Positions 8,887 to 54,816 of a DNA stretch of 64,000 nt are shown here, piece after piece. Below the pieces are notes generated by a model. That model searched no databases. It had not been told where the DNA came from and saw only the letters and a list, made by a program, of their open reading frames with translations. Position numbers and translations under genes: made by a program. The stretch is from an uncultured Gammaproteobacteria bacterium (GTDB taxonomy: Bacteria; Patescibacteriota; Patescibacteriia; UBA9934; CAZDDW01), in contig OZ246408.1 in the NCBI GenBank assembly GCA_965231015.1, positions 83,755 through 147,754 of the forward strand, in the 5' to 3' direction. Within the stretch, counting starts at the first letter, position 1. Each line of letters starts with the position of its first letter.

Positions 8887-10026
8887 ATGAAATATTTGAT
8901 TATCGGTGGTGGCGTCGCTGGAACAACTTGCGCTGAAGAATTGCGCAAGCAGGATGCCAAGGCCGAGATCACAATTGTCAGCGAAGAAAACCACCCACTT
9001 TATTCCCGGGTGCTGCTTCCTCATTACGCCATGGGTAAGGTGTCGCGTGAAAAGTGTTTTTTGAAATCTTTTGAGTGGTACAGAAAACAAAAAATTGAAC
9101 TCATTGAAGGACAACGGGCAGTAAAACTCGACACAGAAAATAAGTTTGTCGAATTAGACGATGCGCGTGAGCTGCCGTATGATAAACTCGTAATCGCTAT
9201 CGGAACTGAGCCACGTCTTGAAACCGGTGAGCCGCGTGGAGTGGGTTACTTTTGGACCATCGACGACACGGACCACTTAGTTAAGTTGCTCGGCGAACCA
9301 GGACACAAACATGCCGTGATTCATGGTGGTGGATTTATTGCGTGTGAATTTTTGAATCTGTTTGCGCATCACGAACTAGCAACCACAGTAGTGTTGCGCG
9401 GTGAACATTTTTGGAATCGGATTCTTGAACCAAAAGTGGCAGATTATTTTATGAATTACCTGAAGGAGCAAGGGGTTGAAATTGTAACTGGGGCAAAAGA
9501 GTTAGAGGTGATGGGCAAGGAGGAGGTCAAAGCTGTTAGAACAAATGGAATTGAGACCAAGTGTTCGGTACTCGGGGTTGCAATCGGAAACGAGATCGAT
9601 TTAACCTGGCTTAAGGAGACAGGGGTTGAGATTGGGGATGGGATTCAAACAAATGAGTATCTTGAAACTAAAGTTTCCAATGTTTATGCTATTGGTGACG
9701 TGGCCGAGAGTTATGACTCGGTGGTGGACAGACAGTATTTGGCCGGAAACTGGGGTCGAGCGTTGACAATGGGCCGCACTTTGGCAAAAACCATGACCGG
9801 TGAGCGGACCGAGTTTCAGCACGTGAGTTCTTACGCGATCAATGTTTTGGGATTAGATGTGACTTTTATTGGTGACACGGACAAGGATGCATCGGAGCGA
9901 GTCGAAATCGAGGAAAAAGAGCAGGGAATTGCCCAAAAACACTATCGGAATGGAATAATGGTTGGAGTAGCCATTTTTGGTAGGGGATTTGATCGAAATA
10001 AGCTTACCCAGGAAGTAGGCAATTAA
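8887..10026 (+). CDS. FAD/NAD(P)-dependent pyridine nucleotide-disulfide oxidoreductase (ferredoxin/rubredoxin reductase-like)
   Basis: N-terminal GGGVAG Rossmann motif and a second GGGFIACE dinucleotide motif; last gene of the Fe-S operon. Confidence 0.8.
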   Translation: MKYLIIGGGVAGTTCAEELRKQDAKAEITIVSEENHPLYSRVLLPHYAMGKVSREKCFLKSFEWYRKQKIELIEGQRAVKLDTENKFVELDDARELPYDKLVIAIGTEPRLETGEPRGVGYFWTIDDTDHLVKLLGEPGHKHAVIHGGGFIACEFLNLFAHHELATTVVLRGEHFWNRILEPKVADYFMNYLKEQGVEIVTGAKELEVMGKEEVKAVRTNGIETKCSVLGVAIGNEIDLTWLKETGVEIGDGIQTNEYLETKVSNVYAIGDVAESYDSVVDRQYLAGNWGRALTMGRTLAKTMTGERTEFQHVSSYAINVLGLDVTFIGDTDKDASERVEIEEKEQGIAQKHYRNGIMVGVAIFGRGFDRNKLTQEVGN

Positions 10027-10067
10027 TTGAAAATTAGCTAAAATAAGATAAAAAGTAGATTTTTGGT

Positions 10068-10105
10068 CCTTATTATTCCTACGTACGAATAATAAGGTCT
10101 TTTTC
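10068..10105 (+). terminator. Rho-independent terminator of the Fe-S operon (CCTTATTATT…AATAATAAGG stem plus T-run)
   Basis: A 10-bp perfect stem followed by TTTTT. Confidence 0.65.
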
Positions 10106-10119
10106 TTTGTGTCTAGACA

Positions 10120-10148
10120 TTGACAAAAAGCCTAAAATATGCTATATT
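10120..10148 (+). promoter_or_regulatory. Promoter copy 1 of the island: TTGACA-17(…GCCTAAAATATGC)-TATATT
   Basis: A consensus -35/-10 at 17-nt spacing. Positions 10120-10155 are nearly identical to 12750-12785. Confidence 0.6.
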
Positions 10149-10290
10149 TGTATGTTCTCCGTGTTAGGCTTTTGGTCGTATTTTAGAAAATGCCGAGCGG
10201 AGGAAAAGATTTCCTCGCTCTTTACAATAAGGCAAAACCACAAAAAAAAATGTGCGGCGGCAAAAGCCGATCGCACGGAGGGAAACAAAA

Positions 10291-12675: not shown

Positions 12676-12683
12676 GACTTCCT

Positions 12684-12733
12684 GGCCCGGTCGGGACGCG
12701 CAGTAAAATGCGTTGTCTCGGCCGGGTCTTTTC
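12684..12733 (+). terminator. Imperfect hairpin terminator after protein A (GGCCCGGTCGGGAC…GTCTCGGCCGGGTC plus TTTT)
   Basis: A stem with 2 mismatches followed by a T-run. Confidence 0.4.
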
Positions 12734-12749
12734 CGTTTATGCTTATATC

Positions 12750-12778
12750 TTGACAAAATTGCTAAAATATGCTATATT
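12750..12778 (+). promoter_or_regulatory. Promoter copy 2 of the island: TTGACA-17(…TGCTAAAATATGC)-TATATT
   Basis: A near-duplicate of 10120-10148. Confidence 0.6.
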
Positions 12779-12980
12779 TATATGTTCACAATTCATACTC
12801 GAGGGGAAGAGTAAGGCGCTGATTCTTTGTTTAACTGGGTTTTCCGGTTAAATATCCCCTCAAGAATTAGCGCTTTATTCGTCCCATTGAGGACACCAAC
12901 CAGAACCTTTCAATAATAGAACGACGACGGGGGAGGACCCCCAACAATAAAGGGGTTCCACCCCGAAAGGAGATACGGGT
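12779..12980 (+). promoter_or_regulatory. Roughly 200-nt structured 5' leader of the lipoprotein gene (several G/C hairpins; AGGAGA RBS at its end)
   Basis: Hairpins CTCGAGGGGA…TCCCCTCAAG, GGGGGAGGACCCCC and AAAGGGGTTCCACCCC are seen directly. Confidence 0.4.
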
Positions 12981-13751
12981 ATGAGGTACATCCTCATGAT
13001 GCTCGCAACCCTGACCCTGGTCGGCACCTCCGGGTGCAGCACCTACAACACGGCCACTCGCGGTGGCCAGTTCTTCGGCACCGGTGCGGTGGCCGTGCGC
13101 GGCATGGACGTCGCACAGGACATGTGCACCACCAAGGACGGCGAGAGATTGCCGTGCAACCTGTCGGCCGTGAGCACCCCGCACGGGGCCGTGGTCGGCG
13201 CGAGCAACGGCGCCTACTACGGCTACCCGTACAGCGCGGTGCCGTACGCGCCGGGCATGATGCTCGGCGGATCGACCGGCAACCCGCAGCTAGACTCGGT
13301 CAAGTTGTACCGCGCCACCCATCCGGGGGTGCCGTACAACCAGACCGCGGCAGACCTGTCCGCGGCCGGGACGTACCAGGCGGTGCGTCAGGGTCAGATG
13401 ACCCGGGCCGCGGTGGCCGGCAACACCGCCGCGATCTACGATGTCGCGGCCGACCAAGCCGCCACGGACGAGTCCGTGCGCGGCCTTGAGGCGAACCAGG
13501 CCGCCACTGCGGCCGAGGTTGAGGACGTGAATCTGCGTTTGCATCAGAACGCGCAGACGCAACAACGGATGGCCCAGGACATTGCCGGGGCCATCAAGGA
13601 GAACGAGGACCGAGCCAATGCGGCCGGTCAGGCGGCCAGCCTGGCTCTCGAGGTTCTCGACGAGGGTGGGTCGAATGGTTCGGCACTGACCGTGGATCAC
13701 CAGATCGAGATCGCGGTTCCGGCCGGGACTGCGGAGGAGGACGACCGATGA
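12981..13751 (+). CDS. GC-rich island protein B: lipoprotein (lipobox LVGTSGC) with an Ala/Gln-rich coiled-coil C-terminus
   Basis: Signal peptide plus lipobox, AGGAGA RBS, and GC3 bias in this frame. Confidence 0.68.
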   Translation: MRYILMMLATLTLVGTSGCSTYNTATRGGQFFGTGAVAVRGMDVAQDMCTTKDGERLPCNLSAVSTPHGAVVGASNGAYYGYPYSAVPYAPGMMLGGSTGNPQLDSVKLYRATHPGVPYNQTAADLSAAGTYQAVRQGQMTRAAVAGNTAAIYDVAADQAATDESVRGLEANQAATAAEVEDVNLRLHQNAQTQQRMAQDIAGAIKENEDRANAAGQAASLALEVLDEGGSNGSALTVDHQIEIAVPAGTAEEDDR

Positions 13752-14566
13752 AGAAGCTAAACCTGATCGCGGTGGCCTTCGTGGTCGCCACCTGCTGTGT
13801 GCTCCCGGCCTACGGGCAGGGAGGCAACCAGCCTTTCGTGATCTCGGAGTCCACCTGGCAGATGTGCCGGGAGGAGGGGATCACGGTGTACGAGGAGTGC
13901 GTGCTCGCCAAGGCTGCCGTGTCCTACACGGCGGTCAAGGGAGAGCGTGACGAGCTTCAAACCCAGAACGCGCACCTGCGCGGTCAGGTCGCGAATCTCG
14001 AGGACGAGAACGCGCACCTGCGCGGTCGCGTCATCTCGCTTGAAGACGCCCAGAGCAGGCTCGAGGCCAAGCTCGACGACCTGCTCGCCGCATCCGCGAC
14101 CGGACCAGCGCCGAGCCTGACCACTCCGGCCATGCCCGCCGCCGCACCAGTGGCCGACCCGCTTTCGGTCGCCTGGAGCAGCGAGCCGCGCAACCACGAG
14201 TTCGCGGCCCTCACCGGTTTGACCTGGGAGTCGTGCGAAGACATGGGTCTTTGCACGGCGTTCGTGAACCAGTCCGCCTACTCGATCACGATCGACGTGG
14301 GCGGGGTGCGTACGGTCATCGGCCGGTCGCACGGGGTCGCGAGCCTCACTCCGGCGCCAACCACTCATGGCGCCGAGACTCTGGTCGGACCGGGTCAGCG
14401 GGTGTACTTGTACGTCGGAGAATCGAGCTTCGACGCCACGTACACCGCGTACGTGCCGATCCGAGGTACGTTCGTGCCGAGCTTCACAAAGACGGTCACG
14501 AACGTGAAGACCAAGGGGGCCAATCCTTTCAAGGGGATTGGCCGAGGTGGCTGGAGCTCCCTCTAG
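13748..14566 (+). CDS. GC-rich island protein C: secreted protein with tandem leucine-zipper-like repeats (NAHLRGQVANLEDENAHLRGRVISLED) and a C-terminal globular domain
   Basis: The ATGA start/stop overlap with protein B implies translational coupling. A signal peptide is present. The repeat is visible at the DNA level (13963-14040). Confidence 0.68.
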   Translation: MKKLNLIAVAFVVATCCVLPAYGQGGNQPFVISESTWQMCREEGITVYEECVLAKAAVSYTAVKGERDELQTQNAHLRGQVANLEDENAHLRGRVISLEDAQSRLEAKLDDLLAASATGPAPSLTTPAMPAAAPVADPLSVAWSSEPRNHEFAALTGLTWESCEDMGLCTAFVNQSAYSITIDVGGVRTVIGRSHGVASLTPAPTTHGAETLVGPGQRVYLYVGESSFDATYTAYVPIRGTFVPSFTKTVTNVKTKGANPFKGIGRGGWSSL

Positions 14567-19757: not shown

Positions 19758-20630
19758 CTATTTCTTGAAATATTTCTTGATAATAGCAATTACATCTTTT
19801 TTATCACTGACTTTCATTAAATCTTGTGTGCTTTCTTTTGCGAAACGATTCAGTTTCGGTAAATTCAGATGACAAGCTCGAATAATTTTATGTTTTGCAA
19901 ATTTAATTAGGCTGGGATCGTTTTTGTTGAAAATACCAAGACGAACAAAAAGTGTTTCGTATGCCATTATTATTGCGAAAAAATAAACAAATGGAATAAA
20001 CGAGAATGTTAATAATGGAGGCAAAATAAAAGTCTTCAAATTTTGTGAAGTCATAATATTCTGAAAATCACCAAAAACTTTTCCAAGTGCAAAAACAATG
20101 AAAAAAACACCAATCAAAGACAGAATAAAATCAAATAACTTTTTTACAGGCAGATACTCTTTTTTTAATTCAGAAACAGCACTCATTGCTACGATAAAAA
20201 CCAAAACGGGAACTAAAATTATTTCCGCTACTAAATTAAATGTGTAGAGCGTTAGAATAAACTCAAGGGCTAAAATGATTTTGAGGTTATCTTTCAAGAT
20301 TTTAATGAAAAATCCTTTTTCCTGATTTGCCTTGTTAGTATTCATGAGTAATACAAACGCAACGGCTAAAAACCAGTAAATCGTATCTTTTAGAAGTGAA
20401 AAATCCCAGATTCCAATTTTAACTAATACTAAAACTGTAAATCCGGTATATACAATCGCAGCAATAATGACAGATAGTATTTTTATTTGGAAAAGAGATT
20501 TTAAAACACCAGAAAAGGATTGTCTGATTTTCTCTTGAGAAAGTATCCAAATTGTCAAAACAAGAAGCCAGAGAATTATTGCTATTTCTCTTGTGTTGAA
20601 TTGTTGAAAAAAGGTCATGAATTTATCCAT
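19758..20630 (-). CDS. Polytopic membrane protein of unknown function (8 predicted TM helices), AT-rich island
   Basis: The 290-aa hydrophobic ORF overlaps the stop of the upstream 517-aa gene by 8 nt. Confidence 0.5.
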   Translation of the reverse strand: MDKFMTFFQQFNTREIAIILWLLVLTIWILSQEKIRQSFSGVLKSLFQIKILSVIIAAIVYTGFTVLVLVKIGIWDFSLLKDTIYWFLAVAFVLLMNTNKANQEKGFFIKILKDNLKIILALEFILTLYTFNLVAEIILVPVLVFIVAMSAVSELKKEYLPVKKLFDFILSLIGVFFIVFALGKVFGDFQNIMTSQNLKTFILPPLLTFSFIPFVYFFAIIMAYETLFVRLGIFNKNDPSLIKFAKHKIIRACHLNLPKLNRFAKESTQDLMKVSDKKDVIAIIKKYFKK

Positions 20631-22176
20631 TCTTTATGTCGTCAAAGAATTTGTGGTAAATTCTATCCAATAAATCAATTTGATAAATCTCATTTCTTCC
20701 AGCGATAATATCTTCCAGTGAATCAAACAAATTCTGTTGTTTGTTTTTTGCTTGCTGGCAAACTAGCTCAAATTCCCAACAGCCAAAAATATAAAAATTG
20801 TCTGACTGTTCTTTCATTTTCTCTTTTATTTTTTCTCGTGCATATTTGTTTACTCCAAACATCTCATCTAAAAACACAACAATGTTGATGATTTTTTGGT
20901 TTTTATATTTTACTTGGCTAACATTATCGGCTTTTATGTGTGTTTCTTTTTTAGCTATTTTATCAACTTCTTTAGCCAAATCTTCGATCAGTTTATTGAT
21001 ACCATTACCATCTTCGTTTTGTATACCAGCTCTTGAATAATTATCTATCTTTCGTTTTTTGCACTCGATCTGAAAAATAAAATCGTCTGAGACTAAAAGC
21101 CAATCGGTTGTTTTCCATTCATTTTTCCCTACTTTGTAAGTTGCTTCTTTGATTACTTCTGCCCTTGTTAGAGCGTCTATATTGTATTGTTTAAAAAATT
21201 CTCCGATATAATCTTCAAAAATACTGCCGATTTCCTGAAGTAATGTTGTTTTGTCACTATTTTCTAATCTTTCGAGAAGCACGTAATATAAGCCTTCAAA
21301 TGTGCCATATAAAAAGTCTGAAATAGACGGAATTACAAATTTTTCGTTTTCCTTTGCGGAATTGGTTTTTATTACAGGGTATCTTTTTAATACGTTAAAT
21401 TCGTATTTTTTAAGTAGCGAATCAGTTATTTCATGTTTTTTATTTTCTTCTACGAATTTATCTGATGATACAGAAAAAATATCGAAAAACTTATTTATGT
21501 TTTCTTCGCTAAGCAGTGGTCTAAGCGGAATAATTGAGGTATTTGTGTAGCTACTCATTAAAAATGAAGTAGCAAATTGTCCGTCCTCTCTTGGGCAATA
21601 ATTGGCGAAAATACAAGTGCCAATTTTCATTGCTTTGAATATTTCTATTCCAAGTGCTGAATCTAATTTCTTCCCAAGCGATGGATTCCGTTCAAAAATT
21701 TTTGAAAAAATCCAATAGTATCTTGCAATAATACTTGAATGAAAACGTAAATAAAACCACTGATGATTTGTGTTGCGAATAACCCATAACCATCCCTTGT
21801 CTGTTCTGTCCTCTTCAGTTTTAATGTGGTTTAATTCTGTCTCCATATTTCCGTACATATAAACCAAATTCGTTAAATCCACATCGTTATATTGTACCTC
21901 TTGCTCTTTGCAATTCAGTAAAATCTGTTTAGAGAGAAAGGAAACAAAATCTCTAGTGAGAGTACCTGCTTTTAATTTAACTTTTGGTGATGCATAAAAT
22001 TCAAATTCAACATTTACATTTACATACACTTGGTTCCCCATTAGGGCACCTAATTTTTGAATCGACATTAAAGAACCGACAAAATCAAAATTTTTGACGA
22101 CATTATTAAAATCATCAACAGTAAAGTGTCTTGAAAATGGAATATCTGACGAAGTTTGAATTTTTATATCGCTCAT
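20623..22176 (-). CDS. Uncharacterised 517-aa protein (candidate defence/restriction component), AT-rich island
   Basis: A long ORF with very low-GC codon usage. The start was placed at the ATG 29 nt downstream of the stop of the DUF262-HNH gene (the upstream in-frame ATG at 22314 would overlap that gene by 110 nt). No recognisable motif. Confidence 0.5.
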   Translation of the reverse strand: MSDIKIQTSSDIPFSRHFTVDDFNNVVKNFDFVGSLMSIQKLGALMGNQVYVNVNVEFEFYASPKVKLKAGTLTRDFVSFLSKQILLNCKEQEVQYNDVDLTNLVYMYGNMETELNHIKTEEDRTDKGWLWVIRNTNHQWFYLRFHSSIIARYYWIFSKIFERNPSLGKKLDSALGIEIFKAMKIGTCIFANYCPREDGQFATSFLMSSYTNTSIIPLRPLLSEENINKFFDIFSVSSDKFVEENKKHEITDSLLKKYEFNVLKRYPVIKTNSAKENEKFVIPSISDFLYGTFEGLYYVLLERLENSDKTTLLQEIGSIFEDYIGEFFKQYNIDALTRAEVIKEATYKVGKNEWKTTDWLLVSDDFIFQIECKKRKIDNYSRAGIQNEDGNGINKLIEDLAKEVDKIAKKETHIKADNVSQVKYKNQKIINIVVFLDEMFGVNKYAREKIKEKMKEQSDNFYIFGCWEFELVCQQAKNKQQNLFDSLEDIIAGRNEIYQIDLLDRIYHKFFDDIKNG

Positions 22177-22204
22177 AACTCTATTTCTGCAATCATGAAA
22201 TTTA

Positions 22205-23374
22205 CTATCTGTTACCCTTTGCCCGATTATGTGTTTTACACAACATCTCACAATTTTTAATGTCACTTTTGCCGCCCTTACTCCAAGCCGAAACATGGTC
22301 GGCGTCCATTTCACTTAAACTCCAAATTTTTGTTTTGTTTACGTCGTGACCGATAGCACAATGCGGACAATTTGATTTACCCTTTTTCTCCGCTTCAGCG
22401 GTTTGTGTTTTATAAACTGCTTTTTTGGTTGCTTCATCAAAAACTCGAACTTCAAGTAATTTTGTATCAACTGAACCTCCGAGAATATATTCAAAAATGC
22501 CTTTGCGCTTTTTAACATACGGATCGGCATAGAGTGTTTGCACCTCAACTGACACTTTCTTGGGATCATATGCTTTCTTATGGTACTGCTCATACAGTCG
22601 GCCCCACTCAAGTCCGCGCATTTCACTTTCAACATCAATAAATACACTGGAAACCCAATCGATGACGCTGTTGAAATAGGTTTTTAGCTCTTTGATATTC
22701 TCGTCGTAGCGATGATGACTCATATAATCACCAATATTCCCCTTACTTACCCAATCAAGGGCGCACTCTAAAAAATCTTGCCGATTTGCGCTGCCTTTTA
22801 CATATGCACTCCATTTTTGGATATTGGCATTTTGACTATTGCTGAATTCAGCTTTTCCAAGAGTAACAAATGGGCCAGAGTAAACTGCGTTGAGTAGTTC
22901 CTGATTGTTAAGTGGTACTCCAACAATATTGATTGTTTTGAACCATTCTTTTATCTCACTTTCGGTTCCTTCGCACTCATAAATAGTTAGTTTTGTTTCC
23001 AAAATCTTGGTTTGTTTGTCTTTTGCCATGCCACCAAAATATTGCTCCATGCCGTTTTCATCTTTGATAGCAAATTTGTCAGTAACAAATCGCCCAAGAC
23101 TGGTAATGCGCTGTTGACCGTCTAAAACTTCGAGATTGTTGTCGCTTACCTTATTAAAATAAATCAATCCTATTGGGTAACCTTTTAGGACTGAATCAAT
23201 AACAGCTATTTCTTTTTTGCCGCCGTCAGAAGCGTAAATATAGTTTCGCTGATATTCAGGCTGAATAGTCAGTTTGCCGGATAAACCGAATAAGCCCTTA
23301 CCTTCTAGCTCGTTATATACAAAGCCATCGCAGATTTCTTTGACAGTAATGGTGATTTGTAAACTTGTTTTCAT
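22205..23374 (-). CDS. DUF262 (ParB/GmrS-like, DGQQR motif) plus HNH endonuclease fusion protein
   Basis: N-terminal …IQPEYQRNY…DGQQR… and C-terminal …CPHCAIGH…[32 protein letters not shown] (HNH). Confidence 0.78.
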
Positions 23375-23375
23375 A

Positions 23376-24566
23376 TTATTGTTTGTTATGTTTGATAAGC
23401 ACCCTTTGATAAACTTTTACTAATAGCCCGTCACGGTTAACAACGCCGCTTGCATTTAAGTCATAAGTTCCTTTTTTTCCGAATTTATCTAAATACGCTT
23501 GTTTACATTCTTCAGTCGTGTACACCCTTGTTTTTAATTTGTACAAATCTTCATTTTCACACATCCCAACAATTTTAAACTGTTCGGGGCTATATTTATC
23601 AAGAATGCTTATCGGCACGCCCATAATGCCATCGAAATCACTCGGAATGTTTTTTACTAACGATACTTCTATCGCGTCATAATTTTCGTACTTTTCAAAA
23701 GGTTTTTTTGTTACGAATTTGATTACCTCTGCTTGTGTCATGAGTGGTAGAGGTTGATGACGGCGACCATGATCAAGGTTAGTGAACCAACGAACACCTT
23801 GCACTCGTGTAACATAAACTTTTTTGCCACTTGCATTTGTTTTGATTTCACGGACTTGCTCCAAATTCGCAATAGCTTCTGGTATCTCAAAAAACATTGC
23901 GCCGGCATTAATTTTGTAATTATTGCCCAACCAAACTTTATTTTCTTTAAGTAATGGGAATATTTCTTTGTATGTTATCGCGTTCAGGTTGCCGATGATC
24001 AAAAACTTTTTATCATAATCAACAAGTTGTTTTATGTATTCTCGAAATAGACTGAATGGTGGATTTGTTACCACAATGTCAGCTTGTTTAAGTAGAGCAA
24101 TAGATTCTTCGCTACGAAAATCACCATCGCCATCTAGCGGAGTCCACTCATTGTCTTTATTTTGCTTAAGCTGTAGAGCAATGTCCTCTAAGTCAAAATC
24201 GCCGTCGCCATCTATGTCGCCTACTTTATTAATAATGAATTTATTTGCAGTTACCTTTCGGCGGCCTTTTGGTTTTGTGAGAGTTTTATCATCGCCAAAC
24301 AATGCTAGTTGCGTATTGGCTACGGGTGATGGTTTATAACTGGTAGTAATAAGCTGTTTTAGTCCGAGCCTGTCAAAGTTGAGTACAAAATATCGAAAGA
24401 AATTGCTTTCAAACGGATCGTCGCAGTTGCAATACACTACCTTGCCTCGGAATACATTGGGGTCGTATTCCAAATAGGCCTCTATTTCTTTTTGAATATC
24501 GGAATATTGAGTATAAAACTCATCATTCTTTGTTCTTTTTGCGTTGGTGAGATTTTTATTCGCCAT
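23376..24566 (-). CDS. N6-adenine DNA methyltransferase (gamma-class-like, NPPF motif)
   Basis: …DEFYTQ… near the N-terminus and …[13 protein letters not shown]… catalytic motif. The stop abuts the start of the DUF262-HNH gene. Confidence 0.78.
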
Positions 24567-32328: not shown

Positions 32329-33366
32329 TTAAAAATCAATTCCGCTTTGAGGTAATTGACGATTCAGATGTTTGTAAGCTTCACGGGTGACCATGCGGCC
32401 GCGTGGGGTTCGGTTGAGAAAACCAATCTGCATTAAAAAAGGTTCGTACACTTCTTCCAAGGTGGCAATTTCTTCCTGAATAGACGCGGCTAATGTGCCA
32501 AGACCGACTGGACCACCGCCAAATTTATCAATAATGGTAGAGAGGATTCGGCGGTCAACTGCGTCCAGACCATGCTCGTCAATTTCAAGCAGGTTTAAGG
32601 CTTCAGTAGTCACCACATCATCTATTTTACCGTCAAACTTAACTTCTGCAAAATCACGTACTCGCCGAAGAAGACGGTTGGCGATTCTTGGAGTGCTTCT
32701 AGAACGCTTGGCAAGTTCAATTGTGGCCGGTTCGTTTATGTTGACGTCTAGTAATCCTGCACTGCGTTTGATGATCTGGCCGATATCTTGGTCTTCGTAG
32801 AAGTTAAGTCGATATGTGACTCCAAATCGGTCACGTAAAGGGCTTGAAAGCAGGGAAATTCTGGTGGTGGCGCCAATGATAGTAAAACGATCCAGGCTCA
32901 AGCGAAGGGTGCGGGCGGTGGGTCCCTTCCCAACTACAAGGTCTAGGGCAAAGTCTTCCATGGCCGGGTAGAGAACCTCCTCAATCGATTTGTTCATACG
33001 ATGAATTTCATCAATAAACAAAATGTCGCCTTCTTTCATGTTAGAAAGAATGGCAGCCAGGTCTCCAAGTTTTTCCAGAGCCGGACCGCTTGTGACTTTG
33101 ATTTTCGAATCGGTCTCGTTGGCAATAACGTGAGCTAGAGTGGTTTTACCAAGTCCCGGATTACCATAAAGCAAGACATGTTCCATGGGTTCACCCCGCT
33201 TTTTAGCAGCGGTTAGAAAAATTTCAAGGTTCTGTTTGATTTCTGGCTGACCCACGAATTCCTCTAAGTTCTGCGGTCGAAGTCCAACCTCAAAATTCTG
33301 CTCGTCTTCTTGAGCGTCATCGTTGACAACACGTTCCTCTTTAAGCTCATCTGGGCGTTCAATCAT
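32329..33366 (-). CDS. ruvB: Holliday junction branch migration helicase RuvB
   Basis: Walker A GNPGLGKTT, …ILFIDEIHRM…, and a C-terminal winged helix. Confidence 0.92.
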   Translation of the reverse strand: MIERPDELKEERVVNDDAQEDEQNFEVGLRPQNLEEFVGQPEIKQNLEIFLTAAKKRGEPMEHVLLYGNPGLGKTTLAHVIANETDSKIKVTSGPALEKLGDLAAILSNMKEGDILFIDEIHRMNKSIEEVLYPAMEDFALDLVVGKGPTARTLRLSLDRFTIIGATTRISLLSSPLRDRFGVTYRLNFYEDQDIGQIIKRSAGLLDVNINEPATIELAKRSRSTPRIANRLLRRVRDFAEVKFDGKIDDVVTTEALNLLEIDEHGLDAVDRRILSTIIDKFGGGPVGLGTLAASIQEEIATLEEVYEPFLMQIGFLNRTPRGRMVTREAYKHLNRQLPQSGIDF

Positions 33367-35617: not shown

Positions 35618-38146
35618 TTAACTAGTTAAATTATAATTTATGTTTTGAGGTTTGTTATTGGTTGACTGAAGACGAGCTCGGTATTTAATGATCAGAACCA
35701 GTAGAATTATGCCAACCGTGGTTGCCAAGGAAACAGCATAAAGTCCACGGCGACCCTGGGCCTGTTCCTTAGTGGACAGACCAGCCAGTCCGGTCGGTTT
35801 TGGTTCTGTTTGTTTCAGATCCTCGGCATCTCTTGGTAATAAACGGTATTCATCAATATATTGGGTCACAATACCCGTTATTTCAACTTGATCACCAATG
35901 TTGTATTTTGCAAGATCAATTTCAGTCTCTTCTTTGATAATCACTTTTAGAGTCGAATTACCGTCTTCTAAGATGAACCGATCATTTTCAATTGATTGAA
36001 TCATGCCGGTTACACTCACTAGCCAGCCCTCAGTTTCTTCGCTGATTTTTGCCAGGCTCATTTTGTGAGCAACCGGTCCTTTTGTGTGGCCAATAATTGA
36101 TAGGTCATCAGCACTTGAGAGTTTTATTCTTGTTTCGTTGTAGCTTTCCACTAGTTCCCCCGTGACGGTCACGGTGTCTCCACGATTGAGCTCTGGCCAA
36201 TCAGCTCGATAGAAATAGATTTGAATTCCTGATCCAGCTAAATACATGACTTGTTTGCCCAAGACTCCTGGCTCTACCGAAACCGTTCCTGTAACTCGAA
36301 CTTCAGTTCCTCGAGCCATGGCCCGAACTTCGTCTAAACTCGACTCGAAGATTGAACTCGAGCTTTTGGTAGCTGTGGGTTCTATTTCTTCGACTGGATT
36401 TGGAGCCAGAGCCATGTTTATGGGTTCAGTCGGTAAATTGGTTGATGTTTCATCTGTCGAAGTAGTTTCTGATTCATTTCCCAGAGCTGTGTTCTGCCAC
36501 GCCCATCCGCCAGTGCCGAGAATAAGTTCGAAGCCTTTTTTGGTTTTTTCATAGGTGAGTTGGTCAGTGATTACTCCATTGGGAGCAATGATGGAGACGG
36601 TTTCGCCGCCGCTGTTGTTAAGGGCCAGGTTAGTATCAGTTCTATAGAAGGTTAAGGATTCATCAGGGTCAATCGAGATGTTAGGCAGGTCGTAACCCTT
36701 GCTCGCGTCGGCTAGCTGCCAACCGTCAAGCTCGATTGGTTCAGTTCCAGTGTTGGTAATCGAGATGAATTCACTGGTGGCGTCTCCTTGGCTTGTGTTT
36801 GGGTATAGGGCAAGAAGCCGGAGGTCGTAAGAGCCTTCCCAACCTTCTTGGTCTTCTAAGCCTTCCAGCTCTTCTTTTGGGGAGGAGGCGGTAGACGAGT
36901 TCAAGGGCTCGTCGCTCGTCGCTTGTGGCACGTCGATCTCAGGCTCTGGATCAGGTTCCGGATCAATCGTAGTCGTAATTTCGTTAACCCAGCCCGGTGT
37001 TGGAGTTTCTGTTTCAGACCAAGTTCCGTCATCAGCTCGAGCTGCTGAATTTGGATCATCTGCAGCCGGAATTGAATCGGTTCCGTACATAATCTCGTCA
37101 ATAACAGCATCGGTGGGGTCGAATAAAGTGATGGTGTCTCCATTGTTATTTAGTTTGCCTTTCGGAGCGGTTACCAGAACAAACTGGTGCAGGCCAAGAA
37201 GTTGGTCCGGCAAGTTTGTCTTGGCTCCAGAACCATCTTGAACAGTCCAGCCAGCTAGATTGATGACATTGTTATATGGGTTCCAGATTTCAATCCATTC
37301 TTCTCCACCCTCGCTCGGGTCACAAACGAATTCGTTGATGATTAACGTGCCAGTTGGGTGAGTAATGGGAAGAATTTCGTTTGTTTCATCTTCGGAAGAG
37401 TCGGTTGAATCGGTTCCGGAAGGGTCATCTCCATCTTCAGATTCAGACTCCTCGCTCTCTTCTGAAGGATCTGTTGGATCGGGGTCATAGGGTTTTTGAT
37501 CATTTGAATTATCGTCTGTAGGGGCGAACGGTTGTTCGCCCAGGTTGCTAGTGCCTGGCGTGCCCAGCTCGATTGCTTCAGGATCAAAGCCATTCGACTC
37601 GGTTGCGTCGGACCACGAACTCGCCAGTGTTCCATCATCAGTCGAAATTCGGGTCATGGATTTGTATTGCCCCGAGCTTCCCGCTGCCGGAGGGCCGCCA
37701 TCTCCAGCAGAATCAACAATTGTCCCAAACTCATCCGAGAGAGTAATTCCGAGCGAGGAATTAGATAAGCTGATCGACGTGCTGACGAAGTTGGGGGTGA
37801 CGCCGAGCACGCTTTTTTTGTTTTCTTGGTCATAGTTACTTATAAGATAGGTAGAGTTGGGTTCAATGACGGCTTCGTTCGGAAGTGTCAGGTTAGAACC
37901 GTTGCTTCCCGATCCAATTAAGATCCAACCCGAGATATCGACCGATTCTGTTTCTAAATTAACAAGTTCTATCCATTCATCAGCGTTCGACAAGCTAGAG
38001 CCTGCCCAGGCGATCTCGGATATATAGATGGAAGGTGGGTTTAAGGTTTCTTCAGTTAGAGTCTCGTTCGCTCTAACGTTTATCGGAGCCAACAAGACCG
38101 CACTGAACCAACCGAGAGCAATTAGCAATCGTAAAGGTTTTTGCAT
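35618..38146 (-). CDS. Large surface protein with lamin-tail-domain (LTD) repeats, an acidic linker and a C-terminal TM anchor
   Basis: Signal peptide and LTD-type segments (…EWIELVNLETESVDISGWIL…, …EWIEIWNPYNNVINLAGWTV…, …EFISITNTGTEPIELDGWQL…); 842 aa. Confidence 0.7.
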   Translation of the reverse strand: MQKPLRLLIALGWFSAVLLAPINVRANETLTEETLNPPSIYISEIAWAGSSLSNADEWIELVNLETESVDISGWILIGSGSNGSNLTLPNEAVIEPNSTYLISNYDQENKKSVLGVTPNFVSTSISLSNSSLGITLSDEFGTIVDSAGDGGPPAAGSSGQYKSMTRISTDDGTLASSWSDATESNGFDPEAIELGTPGTSNLGEQPFAPTDDNSNDQKPYDPDPTDPSEESEESESEDGDDPSGTDSTDSSEDETNEILPITHPTGTLIINEFVCDPSEGGEEWIEIWNPYNNVINLAGWTVQDGSGAKTNLPDQLLGLHQFVLVTAPKGKLNNNGDTITLFDPTDAVIDEIMYGTDSIPAADDPNSAARADDGTWSETETPTPGWVNEITTTIDPEPDPEPEIDVPQATSDEPLNSSTASSPKEELEGLEDQEGWEGSYDLRLLALYPNTSQGDATSEFISITNTGTEPIELDGWQLADASKGYDLPNISIDPDESLTFYRTDTNLALNNSGGETVSIIAPNGVITDQLTYEKTKKGFELILGTGGWAWQNTALGNESETTSTDETSTNLPTEPINMALAPNPVEEIEPTATKSSSSIFESSLDEVRAMARGTEVRVTGTVSVEPGVLGKQVMYLAGSGIQIYFYRADWPELNRGDTVTVTGELVESYNETRIKLSSADDLSIIGHTKGPVAHKMSLAKISEETEGWLVSVTGMIQSIENDRFILEDGNSTLKVIIKEETEIDLAKYNIGDQVEITGIVTQYIDEYRLLPRDAEDLKQTEPKPTGLAGLSTKEQAQGRRGLYAVSLATTVGIILLVLIIKYRARLQSTNNKPQNINYNLTS

Positions 38147-38193
38147 ATATTGTGCTTAGCACGTCGCACGTCGCGAATCGCACGTCGTACTGG

Positions 38194-38544
38194 TTATTTA
38201 ATTACTTGTTTAAAACGCCGCGTTTTTCTTATTATTTTTTCAGCTTTTTCGTATAGTTCATTTTTTGTTTCTGAATCAATGTAGTCAAGTTTATGAGCGA
38301 GAGTGATCAAACTAACTGTTTCTGCGGTAGATCCAATACTGTAGCCGAGAAATCGAATGAAATCTTTTGTAGTGTTTGTTCCAGAGCCCTCCGCAATATT
38401 TGTTGGTATTGAGATCGCAGCACGTCTTAGTTGATCAGATAGAGAGAATCGTTCGAGTTTTGGAAAATGATCAATTGTTTTATATAAATCTAAACAAAAC
38501 TCAAGGGATAAGTTCCAAATATCTAATTCTTCGAATCGAAACAT
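38194..38544 (-). CDS. Four-helix-bundle protein of the 23S rRNA-intervening-sequence protein family
   Basis: 116 aa with …LSDQLRRAAISIPTNIAEG…GYSIGSTAE… typical of this family. It is flanked by imperfect inverted repeats. Confidence 0.75.
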   Translation of the reverse strand: MFRFEELDIWNLSLEFCLDLYKTIDHFPKLERFSLSDQLRRAAISIPTNIAEGSGTNTTKDFIRFLGYSIGSTAETVSLITLAHKLDYIDSETKNELYEKAEKIIRKTRRFKQVIK

Positions 38545-44010: not shown

Positions 44011-44948
44011 TGCAGGGATGGAGAGATGTAAAAGGCTATGGAGACACAAAATATGACAAATTTAACCCAATTGCTTATAGACTAGGCGGTATCCTAAGAC
44101 CGTAAACATTATAATCGTTTACGCAGGATCGCTCACTAGGCGGTTTTTTGGTTGTAAAACAAAGCCTCTGCTCGAGTGCGAACTCGAACAGGGACCAGGA
44201 TCGCAACCGATCCCATGAACTTTCACAATTGAATTCCATAACAACAAACAATACGACAAACTTAAGATCTGATTGTTGGAGAATCGTTCAGCAATCGAAA
44301 CAGATTCATTAAGTGGTTGTAGAGCATCATAAGAGCATATGGTGGATGCCTCGACAGAAGACGCCGATGAAGGACGTAGCAGCCTGCGATAAGCCTCGGG
44401 AAGGTGGCAAGCAACCTTTGATCCGGGGATTTCCGAATGGGGAAACCTAGCATGGAGAATGCCATGTTGTCTTGCACTGAATATATAGGTGTAGGATGGG
44501 AACCTGGTGAAGTGAAACATCTCAGTAACCAGAGGAAAAGAGATCAAGACTTGCTAATGTAGTAATTGCATAATGCTTTATGCGATGGCTACATTCTGCA
44601 AGTTCATTCCCTTAGTAGCGGCGAGCGAAAGGGGATGAGCCCAAACCTTTAATGTGAAGTTTTATTGAACTATCTCTTCGGAGTTAGGGATTTATAACGA
44701 AAGCTATTAGGCGTTGCATTTAAGGGGTTGTAAGATAGTTGTGTTCTCTTGCTAATACAAGAGAGGTAAGGTCAAAAATTATGACTTCCCTAATAGAAGC
44801 CGTTGGAAAGCGGCACCAAAGAGGGTGATAGTCCTGTACATAAAAGGGGTTATATCCTTACGACAATTATTCTTGAGTACCACGAGACTCGTGAAATCTT
44901 GTGGGAACCTGCCGCGACTATGCGGTAAGGCTAAATACGTCTTCTGAT

Positions 44949-44985
<37 letters not shown>

Positions 44986-45552
44986 CACCCCGGGAGGGGA
45001 ATGAAATAGTATCTGAAACCGTATGCTTACAAGGAGTCGGAGTCCCGTCTAACGGGATGACGGCGTTCCTATTGAAGAATGAGCCAACGAGTGTGCTGTG
45101 CGTCGCTTGGTTAAGTCCTTTGGGACGAAGCCTCAGTGAAAGCGAGCGTTAACCCGCGAATTTTGTGGCGCGCACACGACCCGAAACCGAGCGACCTAAC
45201 CATGGGCAGGGTGAAGCGAATGTAACAATTCGTGGAGGCCCGAACCCACTGGCCGTGCAAAACCAGGGGATGACCTGTGGTTAGCGGAGAAATTCCAATC
45301 GAGCTCGGTAATAGCTGGTTCTCGCCGAGATAGCTTTAGGGCTAGCGTCAGTTAATAGCGTATTGGGGGTAGAGCACTGAATGGAGCTGGGGCCGCAAGG
45401 TACCCTCTCTAACCAAACTCCGAATACCAATACGTGTTCCTGGCAGTCAGACTATGGGGGCGAAGCTCCATTAGTCGAAAGGGGAACAGCCCAGATCTCA
45501 AACTAAGGTCCCTAAATCGTGATTAAGTGTGAAAGGTAGTGAAAAGGCAAAT

Positions 45553-45587
<35 letters not shown>

Positions 45588-45679
45588 TAAAGATAGCGTA
45601 ACAGCTCACTGGTCAAGCTTTTTTGCGCCGAAAATGTAACGGGGCTAAATCACGTACCGAAGTTGAGGGTGTTTGTGTC

Positions 45680-45833
45680 TCACTAGCGTTCGACATGAAA
45701 ATGATCAATTTACGAATGATCAATGATCAATGAATGTTCAATTTGAAAATTTACAAATTGTAACTTCAATGAAAATTGAAAACTAAAAATTGAAAATTCC
45801 TGTGGCGAGCGGTAGCGAGACACAGACGCGGTA
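45680..45833 (+). other. IVS-1 in the 23S helix-45 region: stem-flanked AT-rich ~100-nt core
   Basis: It replaces the helix-45 tip (the E. coli ~1170 region) and is flanked by GTGTCTCACTAGCG/CGCTACCGCTCGCCACAG-type complementarity. Confidence 0.7.
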
Positions 45834-46492
45834 GGCGAGCGTTCGCATTGCGTTGAAGCAGTATCGTAAGGTCCTGTGGAGCGATGTGAAGTGAGAATGT
45901 TGGCATGAGTAGCAAAAAGACGGGTGAGAACCCCGTCCACCGAAAACCCAAGGTTTCCTGGGCAACGTAAATCGTCCCAGGGTTAGTCGGGTCCTAAGGC
46001 GAGGCCGAAAGGCGTAGTCGATGGACAGCAGGTTAATATTCCTGCACCACGTATTGTGTCCGATGGAGGGACACTTGTTCGAGCTTCCCGCGTCCTATGG
46101 CTATGACGTTGGGCGCTTGGGGATGGATAGTAGGCAAATCCGCTATCCGTAAGTCTCTGAGTGAGCGCGATTCCACCGCAAGGTGGGAAAGGGGAAGGTA
46201 GAATGAGTCTAGAAAAGCTTCTAAGGATTCCACAATATGTGCCCGTACCGCAAACCAACACAGGTGGGTAGGTATAAGAGTACCAAGGTGTACGAGAGAA
46301 ACATTGTTTAGGAACTCGGCAAAACAGCGGCCGTAACTTCGGGATAAGGCCTGGTTTCCCTCGGGAGAGGGAGACCCGCAGCGAAAGATAGCGAGCGACT
46401 GTTTATCAAAAACACAGGTCCCTGCTAAACCGTAAGGTGATGTATAGGGGCTGATGCCTGGCCAGTGTCCGAACGTTAAGGGAGGGGGTTAG

Positions 46493-46644
46493 CCGTGCCA
46501 TGTGAGCACTTAGCACGGAATGATCAATTTATAAATGATCAATGATCAATGAATGTTCAATTTGAAAATTAACAAATTGGAAATTCAATGAAAATTGAAA
46601 ACTGAAAATTGAAAATTCCATGCCGAGGATTCACATGGCATGGT
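46493..46644 (+). other. IVS-2 in 23S domain IV (the hairpin equivalent to E. coli ~1860), with the same AT-rich core flanked by two hairpins
   Basis: It replaces a GCAAG-type tetraloop between …GGGGTTAGC and TGAAGCTC…. The core is ~92% identical to IVS-1. Confidence 0.7.
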
Positions 46645-46691
46645 GAAGCTCCTGACCGAAGCGCGGATGAACGCCGGCGATAACTATAATC

Positions 46692-46754
<63 letters not shown>

Positions 46755-47242
46755 GCTAACTGTCTCAACAATGTACTCGGCGAAATTGCGAGGAGAGTGA
46801 AGATGCTCTCTAACCGTGGCCGGACGAAAAGACCCCATGAAGCTTTACTACAGCTTGCTATTGGGTTTATGTTTCGCATGTTCAGTATAGGTGGGAGCCT
46901 TCGGGCGCCAGTGAGATACCACCCTTGCGTTGTGTAAATCCTAACTGGATACCGTGAAACCGGTATCTGGGACAGTAGCTGGTGGGTAGTTTACCTGGGG
47001 CGGGTGCCTCCCAAAAAGTAACGGAGGCGTTCACAAAGGTTGGCTTAGCGCGGATGGAAATCGCGCTGGACGTGCAAGCGCACAAGCCAGCTTTACTGCA
47101 AGGCCGACCAGCCGCGCAGTTGCGAAAGCAGGAGCTAGTGATCCGACCGTACGATATAGGACGGCGGAAGCTCATCGGATAAAAGCTACTCTGGGGATAA
47201 CAGGCTAGTCTCCCCCAAGCGTCCACAGCGACGGGGAGGTTC

Positions 47243-47273
<31 letters not shown>

Positions 47274-47287
47274 AGCTGGAGAAGGTT

Positions 47288-47361
<74 letters not shown>

Positions 47362-47708
47362 CTATCCGCCACGGTCGTAGAAAGTTGAGGGAACCCATTC
47401 CTAGTACGAGAGGACCGGAATGGACGAACCTCTGGTGTACCGGTTGTCCTGCCAAGGGCATCGCCGGGTAGCTACGTTCGGGTCGGATAAGCGCTGAAAG
47501 CATATAAGCGCGAAGTCGATCCCAAGATTAACTTTCATTATGAGACCCCTCGGAGATGACGAGGTTGATAGGCTCTAGGTGTAAGCGTGGTAACACGTTC
47601 AGCCGAGGAGTACTAATAGGTCCAGCTCTACAATCACTTAACGAGTTTATTTCAAAATCGCCAAAATTATTTTGACGATTTGAATTCGTTGTTTATAAAA
47701 CCTTCAAA

Positions 47709-47819
47709 GTTCTGGTGGTTCTTCCAGAAGGGCCACACCCGTTCCCATCTCGAACACGGCAGTTAAGTCTTCTAGGGCCGATGGTAGTCAATTGGCGAGA
47801 GTAGGTAGCCGCCAGAACT
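47709..47819 (+). rRNA. rrf: 5S rRNA
   Basis: …CCCGTTCCCATCTCGAACACGG…GCCGATGGTAGT…GAGAGTAGG… with terminal helix TCTGGTGG/CCGCCAGA. Confidence 0.85.
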
Positions 47820-53253: not shown

Positions 53254-53448
53254 GTTATTTCACCCCCCTTCTTTTTTAAGATAAATATTTTTTAAAAATC
53301 CTCCAATAGCTTTGTGAATTTTTAAATTCGACCGTATAGTAATTATAAAACTTTTTTTGTTTTGCAACAATACAAAATAGTAAAAAGTCAAAAGTAAAAA
53401 GTAGAAAGATTTTAGATTCTTTCTACTTTCTAGATTCAACTTTCTATT

Positions 53449-54816
53449 TTAGTCCACGACGTCAACCGGAATACCTACTTCAGCCCAGTGAAAAATCCAT
53501 TCTGCGTTTTCTGTTGAGGCATTTACGCAGCCATGACTCATGCGGTTGCCAAAGTTGTTGTGCCAAGGGGCAGAGTGAATATAAAAGTGTGGCTGGAACA
53601 TTAAATTCCACGGCGTTAGACCCAAGCTGTAATTGTTAGGATTGCCTTCCCCATAACTCCAGGTGTAATCGACCCACTCTTTTTTGGCTAAAACATCGAA
53701 ATTTCCTTGAGGTGATGGAGAAGAATAAAGCCCTGAAGAGATGTAGAACGAGTTATCTAAGATGCCATTCTTATAGGCAAATAATCGTTGTTCAGAGACG
53801 TCAATAATGATGTGTCGTTCACTTGATGGTCCAGCCAGAGCCCCGTTAGGAACCATGACTATTTCATCTTCACCGTCTTGGTCTAAATCGATTAGTTCAA
53901 CATCTTGCACCCAGTCTCTTTTTATCTCAATAACTTCGCCATTATTTTTTTCAATTCGAACGTTGTTATTGTTATAACTGGTTGGTGCAACAACTAAATT
54001 GTTATCCACAGTTTGTGAAAAATTAATTCCACTTTGTATATTTTTTTGTACGGAAGAAATAAAAATTGGTGCACTGTGAACAGAATAAGATATTATTTCA
54101 GAATTATTTCCGGTCATGTGTGAAACTAAAAGTTGTTTGTCACCGTTTGCAGTCTTAACGATTTCAATATTTGTTCCGTCACTGTCTGCAGCATCGAACG
54201 CAAAAAATTCTTCTTCAATCTGCCAATCTTTTCCATTCCATTCCCACATGCGTACGTGTGGTCCTCCGGTTGGCCCAGGCGCGGTCACAATCTCGACTTC
54301 ACCGTCTCCATCTAGATCATCACAGGCTACGTTGACTCCACCGCGGAAGTCTTCCGCGTAGGCAAAGAATCCGTTACTAAATTTTACATTTCCATTGGTA
54401 TCAAAAACCCGCACTTGGGGACCGCCACCGTATTGAGTTCCAGTTACAATCTCGGCTGGACCATCACCATCAAGGTCACAAACTGCCACGTTAATTCCGC
54501 GACCAAAGTTGGCAGCGTAGGCTAAGAAACTGGTGATCTCTGATCCGTCCTGGCGAAAAATTCGTACTCGTGGATCATTGCCAAAACCTTGACCGAGAAT
54601 GATTTCTGGCACTCCATCGATCCCAAGATCAGCTACAGCCAAGCTGGCTCCACCGGAGTTGTTATGAATCGAAATCTCAAAGCTTGATTCTAGCTCACCG
54701 TTTAGATTATAAATTTCAACCGGTAGGGTTCGATACACTGCCGCATTAGCGTTTAAGGCAAATACAAAACTCGCTATAAAAAGCGAAGTAATTGAAAGTG
54801 GGGCTAATTTTTTCAT
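53449..54816 (-). CDS. FG-GAP/VCBS-repeat protein fused to a C-terminal L,D-transpeptidase (YkuD) domain
   Basis: Repeated …DLDGDG..EIV.G… motifs and a C-terminal …SHGCVNAS… catalytic motif. Confidence 0.72.
   Translation of the reverse strand: MKKLAPLSITSLFIASFVFALNANAAVYRTLPVEIYNLNGELESSFEISIHNNSGGASLAVADLGIDGVPEIILGQGFGNDPRVRIFRQDGSEITSFLAYAANFGRGINVAVCDLDGDGPAEIVTGTQYGGGPQVRVFDTNGNVKFSNGFFAYAEDFRGGVNVACDDLDGDGEVEIVTAPGPTGGPHVRMWEWNGKDWQIEEEFFAFDAADSDGTNIEIVKTANGDKQLLVSHMTGNNSEIISYSVHSAPIFISSVQKNIQSGINFSQTVDNNLVVAPTSYNNNNVRIEKNNGEVIEIKRDWVQDVELIDLDQDGEDEIVMVPNGALAGPSSERHIIIDVSEQRLFAYKNGILDNSFYISSGLYSSPSPQGNFDVLAKKEWVDYTWSYGEGNPNNYSLGLTPWNLMFQPHFYIHSAPWHNNFGNRMSHGCVNASTENAEWIFHWAEVGIPVDVVD

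Follow-up and report, generated by a model that had tools for sequence, protein, structure and literature searches.

Hairpin inserts with near-identical inner modules at two helices of a candidate-phyla-radiation 23S rRNA gene

Two hairpin inserts and their common core

This report concerns a 23S ribosomal RNA (rRNA) gene in a window of 64,000 nucleotides (nt), the whole stretch of DNA analysed (part of contig OZ246408.1), in which two helices end in long hairpin inserts built around nearly the same AT-rich core. An earlier note on this DNA had located the insertions at the tip of helix 45 and in a tetraloop of domain IV; Rfam and alignment to Escherichia coli place them at the same two sites and identify the second as the tip of helix 68. 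The observation holds in every respect, and its interpretation in large part. The gene and the parts of the two inserts are as follows.

44318-47634, + strand: 23S rRNA gene, 3317 nt against a model of 2925 positions (Rfam RF02541, 2567.6 bits, model positions 1-2925)
45669-45829, + strand: helix 45 hairpin, a single hairpin with a minimum free energy of -59 to -64 kcal/mol
45671-45699, + strand: 5' outer arm of the helix 45 insert, GC-rich, pairing with 45801-45827 (inverted repeat, fold)
45700-45800, + strand: core copy 1, AT-rich inner hairpin of 101 nt with a GC of 0.22 (nhmmer E = 1e-27)
45715-45733 and 45770-45798, + strand: period-7 arrays of copy 1, AATGATC and TGAAAAT, respectively (Tandem Repeats Finder)
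45801-45827, + strand: 3' outer arm of the helix 45 insert, containing TGTGGCGAGCGGTAGCGAGACAC
46493-46518, + strand: 5' outer arm of the helix 68 insert, GCCGTGC...GCACGG, pairing with 46620-46644 (inverted repeat)
46494-46642, + strand: insert at the helix 68 tip, 149 nt in place of a 4-nt loop, after E. coli position 1868
46519-46619, + strand: core copy 2, 101 nt, GC 0.21
46519-46552 and 46562-46617, + strand: period-7 arrays of copy 2, AATGATC and TTGAAAA, respectively (Tandem Repeats Finder)
46620-46644, + strand: 3' outer arm of the helix 68 insert

In a MAFFT alignment to E. coli MG1655 rrlH (locus L007) the gene carries at least four insertions; boundaries drawn from such pairwise alignments are approximate. 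When sub-regions are aligned to the Rfam model, the helix 45 insertion falls at about 45683-45820 and adds some 140 bases to the terminal loop of a hairpin (model positions 1206-1226); the pairwise alignment to rrlH puts it between E. coli 1167 and 1185. Position 1868 of E. coli lies in the GCAA loop of a long irregular hairpin (1835-1905), helix 68. This naming agrees with the assignment of C1836 and bridge B2b to H68 (PMC9040758).

Together with its flanks, each insert folds into one long hairpin with a stem of about 55-58 base pairs. The folding energies are -63.9 kcal/mol (z = -6.5) for helix 45 and -79.3 kcal/mol (z = -11.2) for helix 68, and in neither case did any of 200 shuffled sequences fold as well. 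The complementary ends prolong the native helix, and the GC-rich complementary arms proposed in the earlier note are seen both as inverted repeats and in the folds. The sense strand folds better than the antisense strand by 5-8 kcal/mol in both inserts, and is the better strand in 18 of 24 inserts overall, a modest asymmetry. No open reading frame (ORF) of meaningful size was found inside either insert, and a protein-coding insert was rejected on this ground. Within the inserts no Rfam family, introns included, reached the gathering threshold; the sub-threshold matches (E up to 1) are mostly to generic long-hairpin families of microRNA precursors. A group I intron was likewise rejected, as its catalytic core was not detected by covariance model at the gathering threshold.

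The two core copies are identical at 95 of 101 positions (94%) without a gap, and they form the only repeat family reported in the repeat search. Near-identity had been claimed before at approximately 92%; that claim stands, with the figure refined to 94% over 101 nt and to 92% over 110 nt when the inserts are compared by blastn. The cores are AT-rich (GC 0.21-0.22, against 0.49 for the whole 23S gene) and internally repetitive, as had been described: period-7 arrays occupy both arms of the core hairpin in both copies, AATGATC in the 5' arm and TGAAAAT in the 3' arm. Outside the core the two inserts align unconvincingly, and their GC-rich outer arms differ between the sites. The same element at two unrelated helices, as the earlier note put it, is thus a common core inside differing outer arms. 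Four of the six core differences fall at positions that both folds leave unpaired; of the remaining two, within or beside the sub-apical stem, one is paired in both folds and one in copy 2 only. Covariation between the copies was considered and rejected, none of the six being compensatory.

Further copies of the core, which the earlier note had proposed to look for, were found neither in the window nor in public collections. Two 36-nt probes, allowing up to three mismatches, detected no third copy in the 64 kb (and had no match in shuffled sequence), and an nhmmer profile of both copies, run against the window and all fetched loci, recovered these two only. An exact core 24-mer had no match in one genome per species. 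A core 20-mer had no match in viral contigs and a single chance match in JGI metagenomes (L004), to AT-rich non-rRNA sequence without an Rfam match. The ends of the core are inverted (GGAATGATCAATTT / AAATTGAAAATTCC), which is trivially so for any hairpin. Direct reading of the junctions revealed no target-site duplication, the flanks being ...CGACATGAAA / core / TGTGGCGAG... and ...TAGCACGG / core / ATGCCGAGG....

The host can be placed by the RuvB gene (32329-33366), 11 kb away from the 23S gene. Its best named matches, at 75-80% identity, come from 'Candidatus Uhrbacteria' and 'Patescibacteria group' genomes, and the closest relatives encode RuvB proteins (P0002-P0006) that are 80-89% identical. 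Because of these homologs we assign the host to the candidate phyla radiation (CPR); on this evidence it is an Uhrbacteria-like CPR bacterium with a small genome. The window represents about 6% of a genome of approximately 1.0 Mb, and window-wide searches cover that share.

Misassembly could have produced one of the two copies by a repeat-induced misjoin. Short-read Logan contigs of the same organism (L001, L005) do break at both ends of the rRNA region, with stops about 120 nt past the start of the 23S gene and about 150 nt short of its end. As an independent trace of the assembly, spurious ORFs within the 23S gene were looked up, and no record of any exists. We nevertheless regard an artefact as extremely improbable. 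The copies differ at six positions, each sits in its own fully complementary stem that continues the native helix exactly at the loop, a like arrangement occurs in independent assemblies of other CPR genomes, and the source contig is approximately 1.0 Mb long.

Helix 68 inserts, related inserts and heptamer repeats in other genomes

Insertions at the helix 68 tip were sought in one genome each of 185,579 species, using anchors at E. coli 1774-1792 and 1924-1942 at a spacing of 231-291 nt versus the normal 131. Fifty stretches matched, and after removal of scaffolding gaps and misjoins roughly 20 species were left with an insert of 100-157 nt at E. coli 1865-1873. Seven CPR genomes are among them (L019, L025, L037, L040, L048, L050 and L053). 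The holders from other groups are Chthonomonadaceae, several Endozoicomonas (where many rRNA operons carry the insert), three Legionella species, Cloacimonadota, Thermovirgaceae, a Bacillota genome, Marinicella, Latescibacterota and Thermodesulfovibrio. The core of the window is absent from all of these species. The helix 68 tip is therefore a rare but recurrent insertion site across several phyla. The helix 68 inserts of Legionella (L017, L035, L055) and Endozoicomonas (L010, L020, L023, L033) look homologous, having in common CCAGATTG...GAAGGAG..TAC...TGACTGAG...CAATGTGGTG, which suggests one insert lineage common to these two gammaproteobacterial genera.

All insertions in the 23S genes of seven CPR loci were mapped against E. 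coli and compared, with alignment spans that vary by method. The CPR 23S genes compared are approximately 80-85% identical to that of the window, and at helices 45 and 68 their inserts are different or absent; L019 (Patescibacteria STB_112), for instance, is without a helix 45 insert, and its helix 68 insert differs from that of the window. In five of the seven other CPR loci, two or more helices of the 23S gene carry inserts related to one another, and in two of these loci the whole hairpin is duplicated. The first is L040 (P6-19), in which the helix 45 and helix 68 inserts (oriented positions 4162-4276 and 4951-5093) are 81-83% identical over 115-128 nt. Here the similarity covers the outer stems as well, and it begins and ends exactly at the native helices. 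These twins repeat the helix 45 / helix 68 arrangement of the window with a different heptamer family (GAACAGC / TCTGGTC). The second is L019, with inserts after E. coli 136 and 230 at neighbouring helix tips (oriented positions 1585-1710 and 1779-1901); in blastn these agree at 96% over 68 nt, and in a MAFFT alignment they are near-identical along the full hairpin of about 125 nt. A second family in L019 comprises inserts at helix 25, helix 63 and E. coli 2179.

In L053 the inserts at helices 45, 63 and 68 are 73-76% alike in pairwise comparison, and a fourth, located after E. coli 2129, shows a weaker relationship (63-74%); the ends GCACAG-AAATTCC...GGAATTTCC-GTGC are common to the four. The helix 25, 63 and 68 inserts of L048 and L025 belong to one TTAACAATTAAC family. 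When 28 inserts were compared all-against-all by blastn, scores of at least 60 bits were obtained for 7 of 46 within-genome pairs versus 4 of 332 between-genome pairs (Mann-Whitney p = 2e-6), and the pair of the window was the strongest of all.

Likeness also extends across genomes, both at the same helix (helix 25 of L053 and L048, 81% over 94 nt) and between different sites (helix 45 of L053 and helix 63 of L019, 71% over 153 nt). The outer arms of the window's own inserts recur in the same way: in the helix 45 3' arm, TGTGGCGAGCGGTAGCGAGACAC matches an L019 insert near E. coli 2220, a different 23S site, at 22 of 23 bases, and the form of the helix 68 5' arm, GCCGTGC...GCACGGAAT, returns in the helix 25 and helix 63 arms of L019. 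Judged from their sequences, the inserts look modular, with types of outer stem and inner repeat modules combined differently by site, and this pattern suggests that CPR rRNA inserts spread as copyable modules.

Two further insertions of the window's gene are unrelated to the twin core. One, at 44547-44599 and after E. coli 226, is a hairpin of 53 nt that folds at -28.5 kcal/mol if short flanks are included; the other, of about 125 nt, lies at 44654-44778, after E. coli 280. Both sites also hold inserts in L019, L053, L048 and L040.

Heptamer repeats are found well beyond the twin core. Tandem Repeats Finder was applied to 40 inserts (28 from CPR and 12 non-CPR helix 68 inserts), and 55 of the 77 arrays obtained had a period of 7, with nine more at period 14 or 21. 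At least one period-7 array was present in 24 of the 40 inserts, including those of Cloacimonadota, Thermodesulfovibrio and Chthonomonadaceae. A separate mapping of insertions revealed heptamer-like repeats in non-CPR helix 25 and helix 45 inserts as well. Such non-CPR heptamer stems were seen in 23S inserts of L039, L012, L010, L031 and L008; in Chthonomonadaceae the heptamers are AGTAGTC (helix 45) and GGGAACA (helix 68 and the site after E. coli 274), in Cloacimonadota GTTAACC (helix 25) and GCAAAGA (helix 68), and in Endozoicomonas TTTCAGT (helix 45). The helix 45 insert of Coxiella is described as having two or three tandem GACAGAT repeats, with the mapped 5' site of ribonuclease III (RNase III) at the first repeat (PMC4990558). 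In the literature we found no paper that treats heptamer repeats as a general property of such inserts.

Excision, retention and origin of the inserts

We consider it probable that the two inserts are RNase III-type intervening sequences with a common, copied inner module, and that the 23S rRNA is in three pieces. Each insert is an ORF-less, long imperfect hairpin replacing the terminal loop of a 23S helix (45 or 68), in which a site-specific GC-rich outer stem prolongs the native helix and an AT-rich, heptamer-armed hairpin sits inside. The twin inserts are one instance of a broader tendency in CPR 23S genes, whose inserts at different helix tips are often related and whose insert types return at other sites and in other genomes. 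The long duplexes would most likely be cut from the precursor by RNase III without religation, and the three pieces (about 1.36, 0.66 and 0.99 kb) would stay joined through the structure of the ribosome.

Inserts of this kind are known. In a published survey, 82% of 348 CPR 23S genes have insertions of at least 100 bp; about half of the insertions are group I introns, and the others are mostly short (<200 bp) and ORF-less, many of them at classical sites and read by the authors as RNase III-type (PMC11270868; see also PMC9297842). Classical intervening sequences turn the tetraloops of helices 9, 25 and 45 into extended stem-loops that are cut by RNase III (PMC4990558). The inserts of the window belong to the short ORF-less intervening sequences of CPR 23S rRNA, and the one at helix 45 is ordinary for CPR. 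Like the RNase III-processed sequences of Salmonella (helices 25/45), Leptospira, Campylobacter, Yersinia and Coxiella (helix 45), they are stem-loops in place of the terminal loop of a surface helix; the helix 45 site and the AT-richness relative to the rRNA are further points of likeness to the classical cases, which may extend to sporadic occurrence among relatives. With the Coxiella insert they have tandem heptameric repeats in the stem in common (PMC4990558). The helix 68 tip is not among helices 9, 25 and 45, the commonest sites named in the review text available (PMC4990558). Unlike the classical cases, the two inserts have a near-identical inner module, and their excision is predicted by analogy; unlike those of Coxiella and Leptospira, they are without an ORF.

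They resemble the ORF-less non-intron inserts of Tsurumaki et al. 2024 (23IS2, 23IS4) in host group, in length below 200 bp, in having neither an ORF nor an intron core, and in the helix 45-type site (PMC11270868). The similarity reported there, in the text available, is among inserts at the same site, whereas the related copies of the window are at different sites; cross-site copies within one gene, heptamer arms and modular outer and inner parts, all present in the window, do not appear in that text (PMC11270868). Group I introns of CPR are also located in 23S genes and are removed from the transcript. Unlike them, the inserts of the window have no intron core (no Rfam match), are far too short and have no homing endonuclease, and they lie in helix loops rather than at the conserved intron sites 1917, 1931, 1952 and 2593-2657. 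Three aspects are apparently undescribed in the sources available: an insertion site at the tip of helix 68, modules that are near-identical between two helices of the same gene, and a modular heptamer architecture across CPR and beyond.

Both hairpins might instead be kept in the mature 23S rRNA as surface extensions, in the manner of eukaryotic expansion segments or of some bacterial expansions, the rRNA remaining unfragmented. Helix 45 tolerates insertions and corresponds to the eukaryotic expansion segment ES15 (PMC2441807), both inserts coaxially prolong native helices, and nothing in our data shows cleavage. Helix 68 is a different matter: it forms bridges between the subunits (B2b and B7a) and moves together with the L1 stalk (PMC9040758), and a screen of random insertions in E. 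coli 23S rRNA, in which helix 45 was tolerant, recovered a tolerated domain IV site only in helix 63 (PMC2441807). Because of the interface bridges and the intolerance seen in that screen, removal is favoured at helix 68, which gives indirect support to the view that an extension of 149 nt would there be removed rather than kept. The sequence and presence of inserts also vary widely among CPR 23S genes that are 80-85% identical, which argues against a conserved structural role, and the architecture, heptameric repeats included, is that of inserts known to be cut by RNase III. We therefore find retention rather unlikely.

Excision and RNase III as the enzyme are what we infer from this architecture, from the literature on the class, from the interface position of helix 68 and from a stem that joins the ends of the 23S gene:

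44297-44325, + strand: 5' strand of the 23S end-pairing stem, 29 nt, 83% complementary to its partner at 47625-47653
47625-47653, + strand: 3' strand of the 23S end-pairing stem, inverted repeat with 44297-44325

The stem is presumably of the usual precursor-processing type of bacterial rRNA maturation.

As to origin, the outer stems differ between the sites and the inner module is identical at 95 of 101 positions; for this reason we infer that the core was copied from one insert to the other. In the proposed order the outer stems would have been present before the inner module was copied between the inserts, and the route would have been either insertion of a hairpin copy at a stem tip or short-patch conversion between inserts; direction and mechanism of copying are likewise reconstructed from the sequences. 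The earlier note had named a transposing mini-element and gene conversion as the two possible origins, and the data of the window do not separate them: since identity ends at the outer stems, insertion of a hairpin copy and short-patch conversion fit equally well.

Gene conversion is well known among rRNA sequences, and concerted evolution might account for the twin cores without any insertion of a core, if two independently acquired and already similar inserts had been homogenised inside by short-patch conversion. The sharp end of identity at the outer stems is what would be expected of a tract limited to the homologous part. This explanation presupposes a homology between the inserts that itself needs explaining. 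Moreover, the identity between the twins of L040 and L019 reaches the native helix on both sides, and because the flanks are without homology, conversion cannot have begun these whole-hairpin twins; copy-insertion must therefore happen at least sometimes in the CPR group. Conversion as the only process is in our view possible, if somewhat unlikely.

The core could also be a non-autonomous miniature inverted-repeat DNA element that survives only in rRNA hairpin tips, the element being the 101 nt with their GGAAT...ATTCC ends. Its inverted ends, its position inside two unrelated outer stems, the whole-hairpin duplicates at unrelated helices of L040 and L019, and the occurrence of insert families at different sites across genomes (L053 helix 45 and L019 helix 63) would all suit such an element, and the core is like miniature inverted-repeat elements and other small bacterial hairpin repeats in being small, forming a hairpin and having more than one copy. 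Unlike these, however, it shows no target-site duplication at its two junctions, and the window contains no dispersed copies of it, the profile search included; it is confined to rRNA helix tips and has no match in genome, metagenome or viral collections. There is no transposase nearby. The stems, furthermore, use G-U pairs of the sense strand and fold better on that strand of the rRNA, which points to selection on RNA. A mobile DNA element is thus improbable as an explanation, and a conventional transposable element is unlikely.

Several points weigh against intervening sequences with a copied module, the reading that we prefer. Excision, fragmentation and the enzyme are all argued by analogy for this organism, and large rRNA expansions are kept in the mature ribosome of some bacteria. 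No signature of an RNase III (rnc) gene was found in the window, which says little given the small share of the genome covered. The six core differences, with no compensatory change among them, provide no covariation support. The comparison set of seven CPR loci is small and biased, as all were picked for a helix 68 insert of similar size, and AT-rich repeats inflate similarity, an effect that the between-genome control of the same composition corrects in part only.

Other features of the locus and implications of the inserts

The 23S gene is followed by a 5S rRNA gene, and a gene of the family named after 23S rRNA intervening sequences lies upstream of it:

47711-47817: 5S rRNA, 107 nt (Rfam)
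38194-38544, - strand: stand-alone PF05635 (23S_rRNA_IVP) gene (Pfam E = 1.1e-34)

The Rfam scan detected no 16S rRNA gene anywhere in the 64 kb. The 23S and 5S genes stand alone, with no 16S gene for 44 kb upstream or 16 kb downstream, so that the rRNA genes are unlinked. A 5S rRNA of 107 nt is the short form reported for CPR of the Parcubacteria group (PMC9297842). The 239-aa gene upstream is an orphan. The 505-aa gene downstream has homologs of 85%, 72% and 70% identity on contigs that start at the 5S gene or the 3' end of the 23S gene (L058-L060). On the contig whose neighbour gene is 72% identical (L059, GCA_054038955.1), a LAGLIDADG_1 ORF (353-814) lies within a roughly 950-nt insertion located in the 3' part of the 23S gene; the 23S gene of the window has no counterpart of this insertion.

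The stand-alone PF05635 gene had been recognised in the earlier note, and the ORF does match the family; for this gene the evidence is of family membership and not of a link to the inserts. Four tandem GCACGTC heptamers (38159-38187) occupy the 47-nt gap between it and a gene (35618-38146, - strand) whose 842-aa product has lamin-tail and OB-fold domains. A further heptamer hairpin outside rRNA, at 53381-53446, consists of AAAAAGT x4.9 facing CTTTCTA x4.6 in 29-nt arms that are 79% complementary; it is directly downstream of an ORF on the - strand (53449-54816) and looks like a terminator in the style of the rRNA inserts. Two blocks depart from the average GC content of the window (0.465). The low-GC block (20000-24000, 0.31-0.37) holds a weak match to the GapS1 antiphage family (20623-22314, - strand), well under the curated family cut-off, and the high-GC block (10000-14000, 0.60-0.62) holds an 807-aa ORF (10252-12675) without an NCBIfam match.

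How intervening sequences and expansion segments enter rRNA has been an open question since they were first described. For intervening sequences, remnants of transposition and mobile elements are mentioned as untested ideas (PMC4990558). The 94%-identical modules in two unrelated helices of one gene are direct evidence of copying between helix tips, to which the whole-hairpin twins of other CPR genomes add. The inserts at helix 68, at an interface intolerant of insertions, predict removal and hence a functional 23S rRNA cut within domain IV. In practical terms, the repeats of the inserts explain the breaks of short-read assemblies in these genes and need masking in CPR 23S phylogeny or probe design.

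More broadly, and tentatively, the hairpin inserts of CPR and some other phyla may be families of copy-and-paste modules that settle at helix tips and move between sites of one 23S gene and between genomes. The heptamer arms would then serve as a processing substrate, the helix 68 tip would be a landing site so far unlisted, and the twin cores of the window would be the trace of a recent hop. If this is true, such modules would show concretely how insertions, and perhaps expansion segments, come into rRNA.

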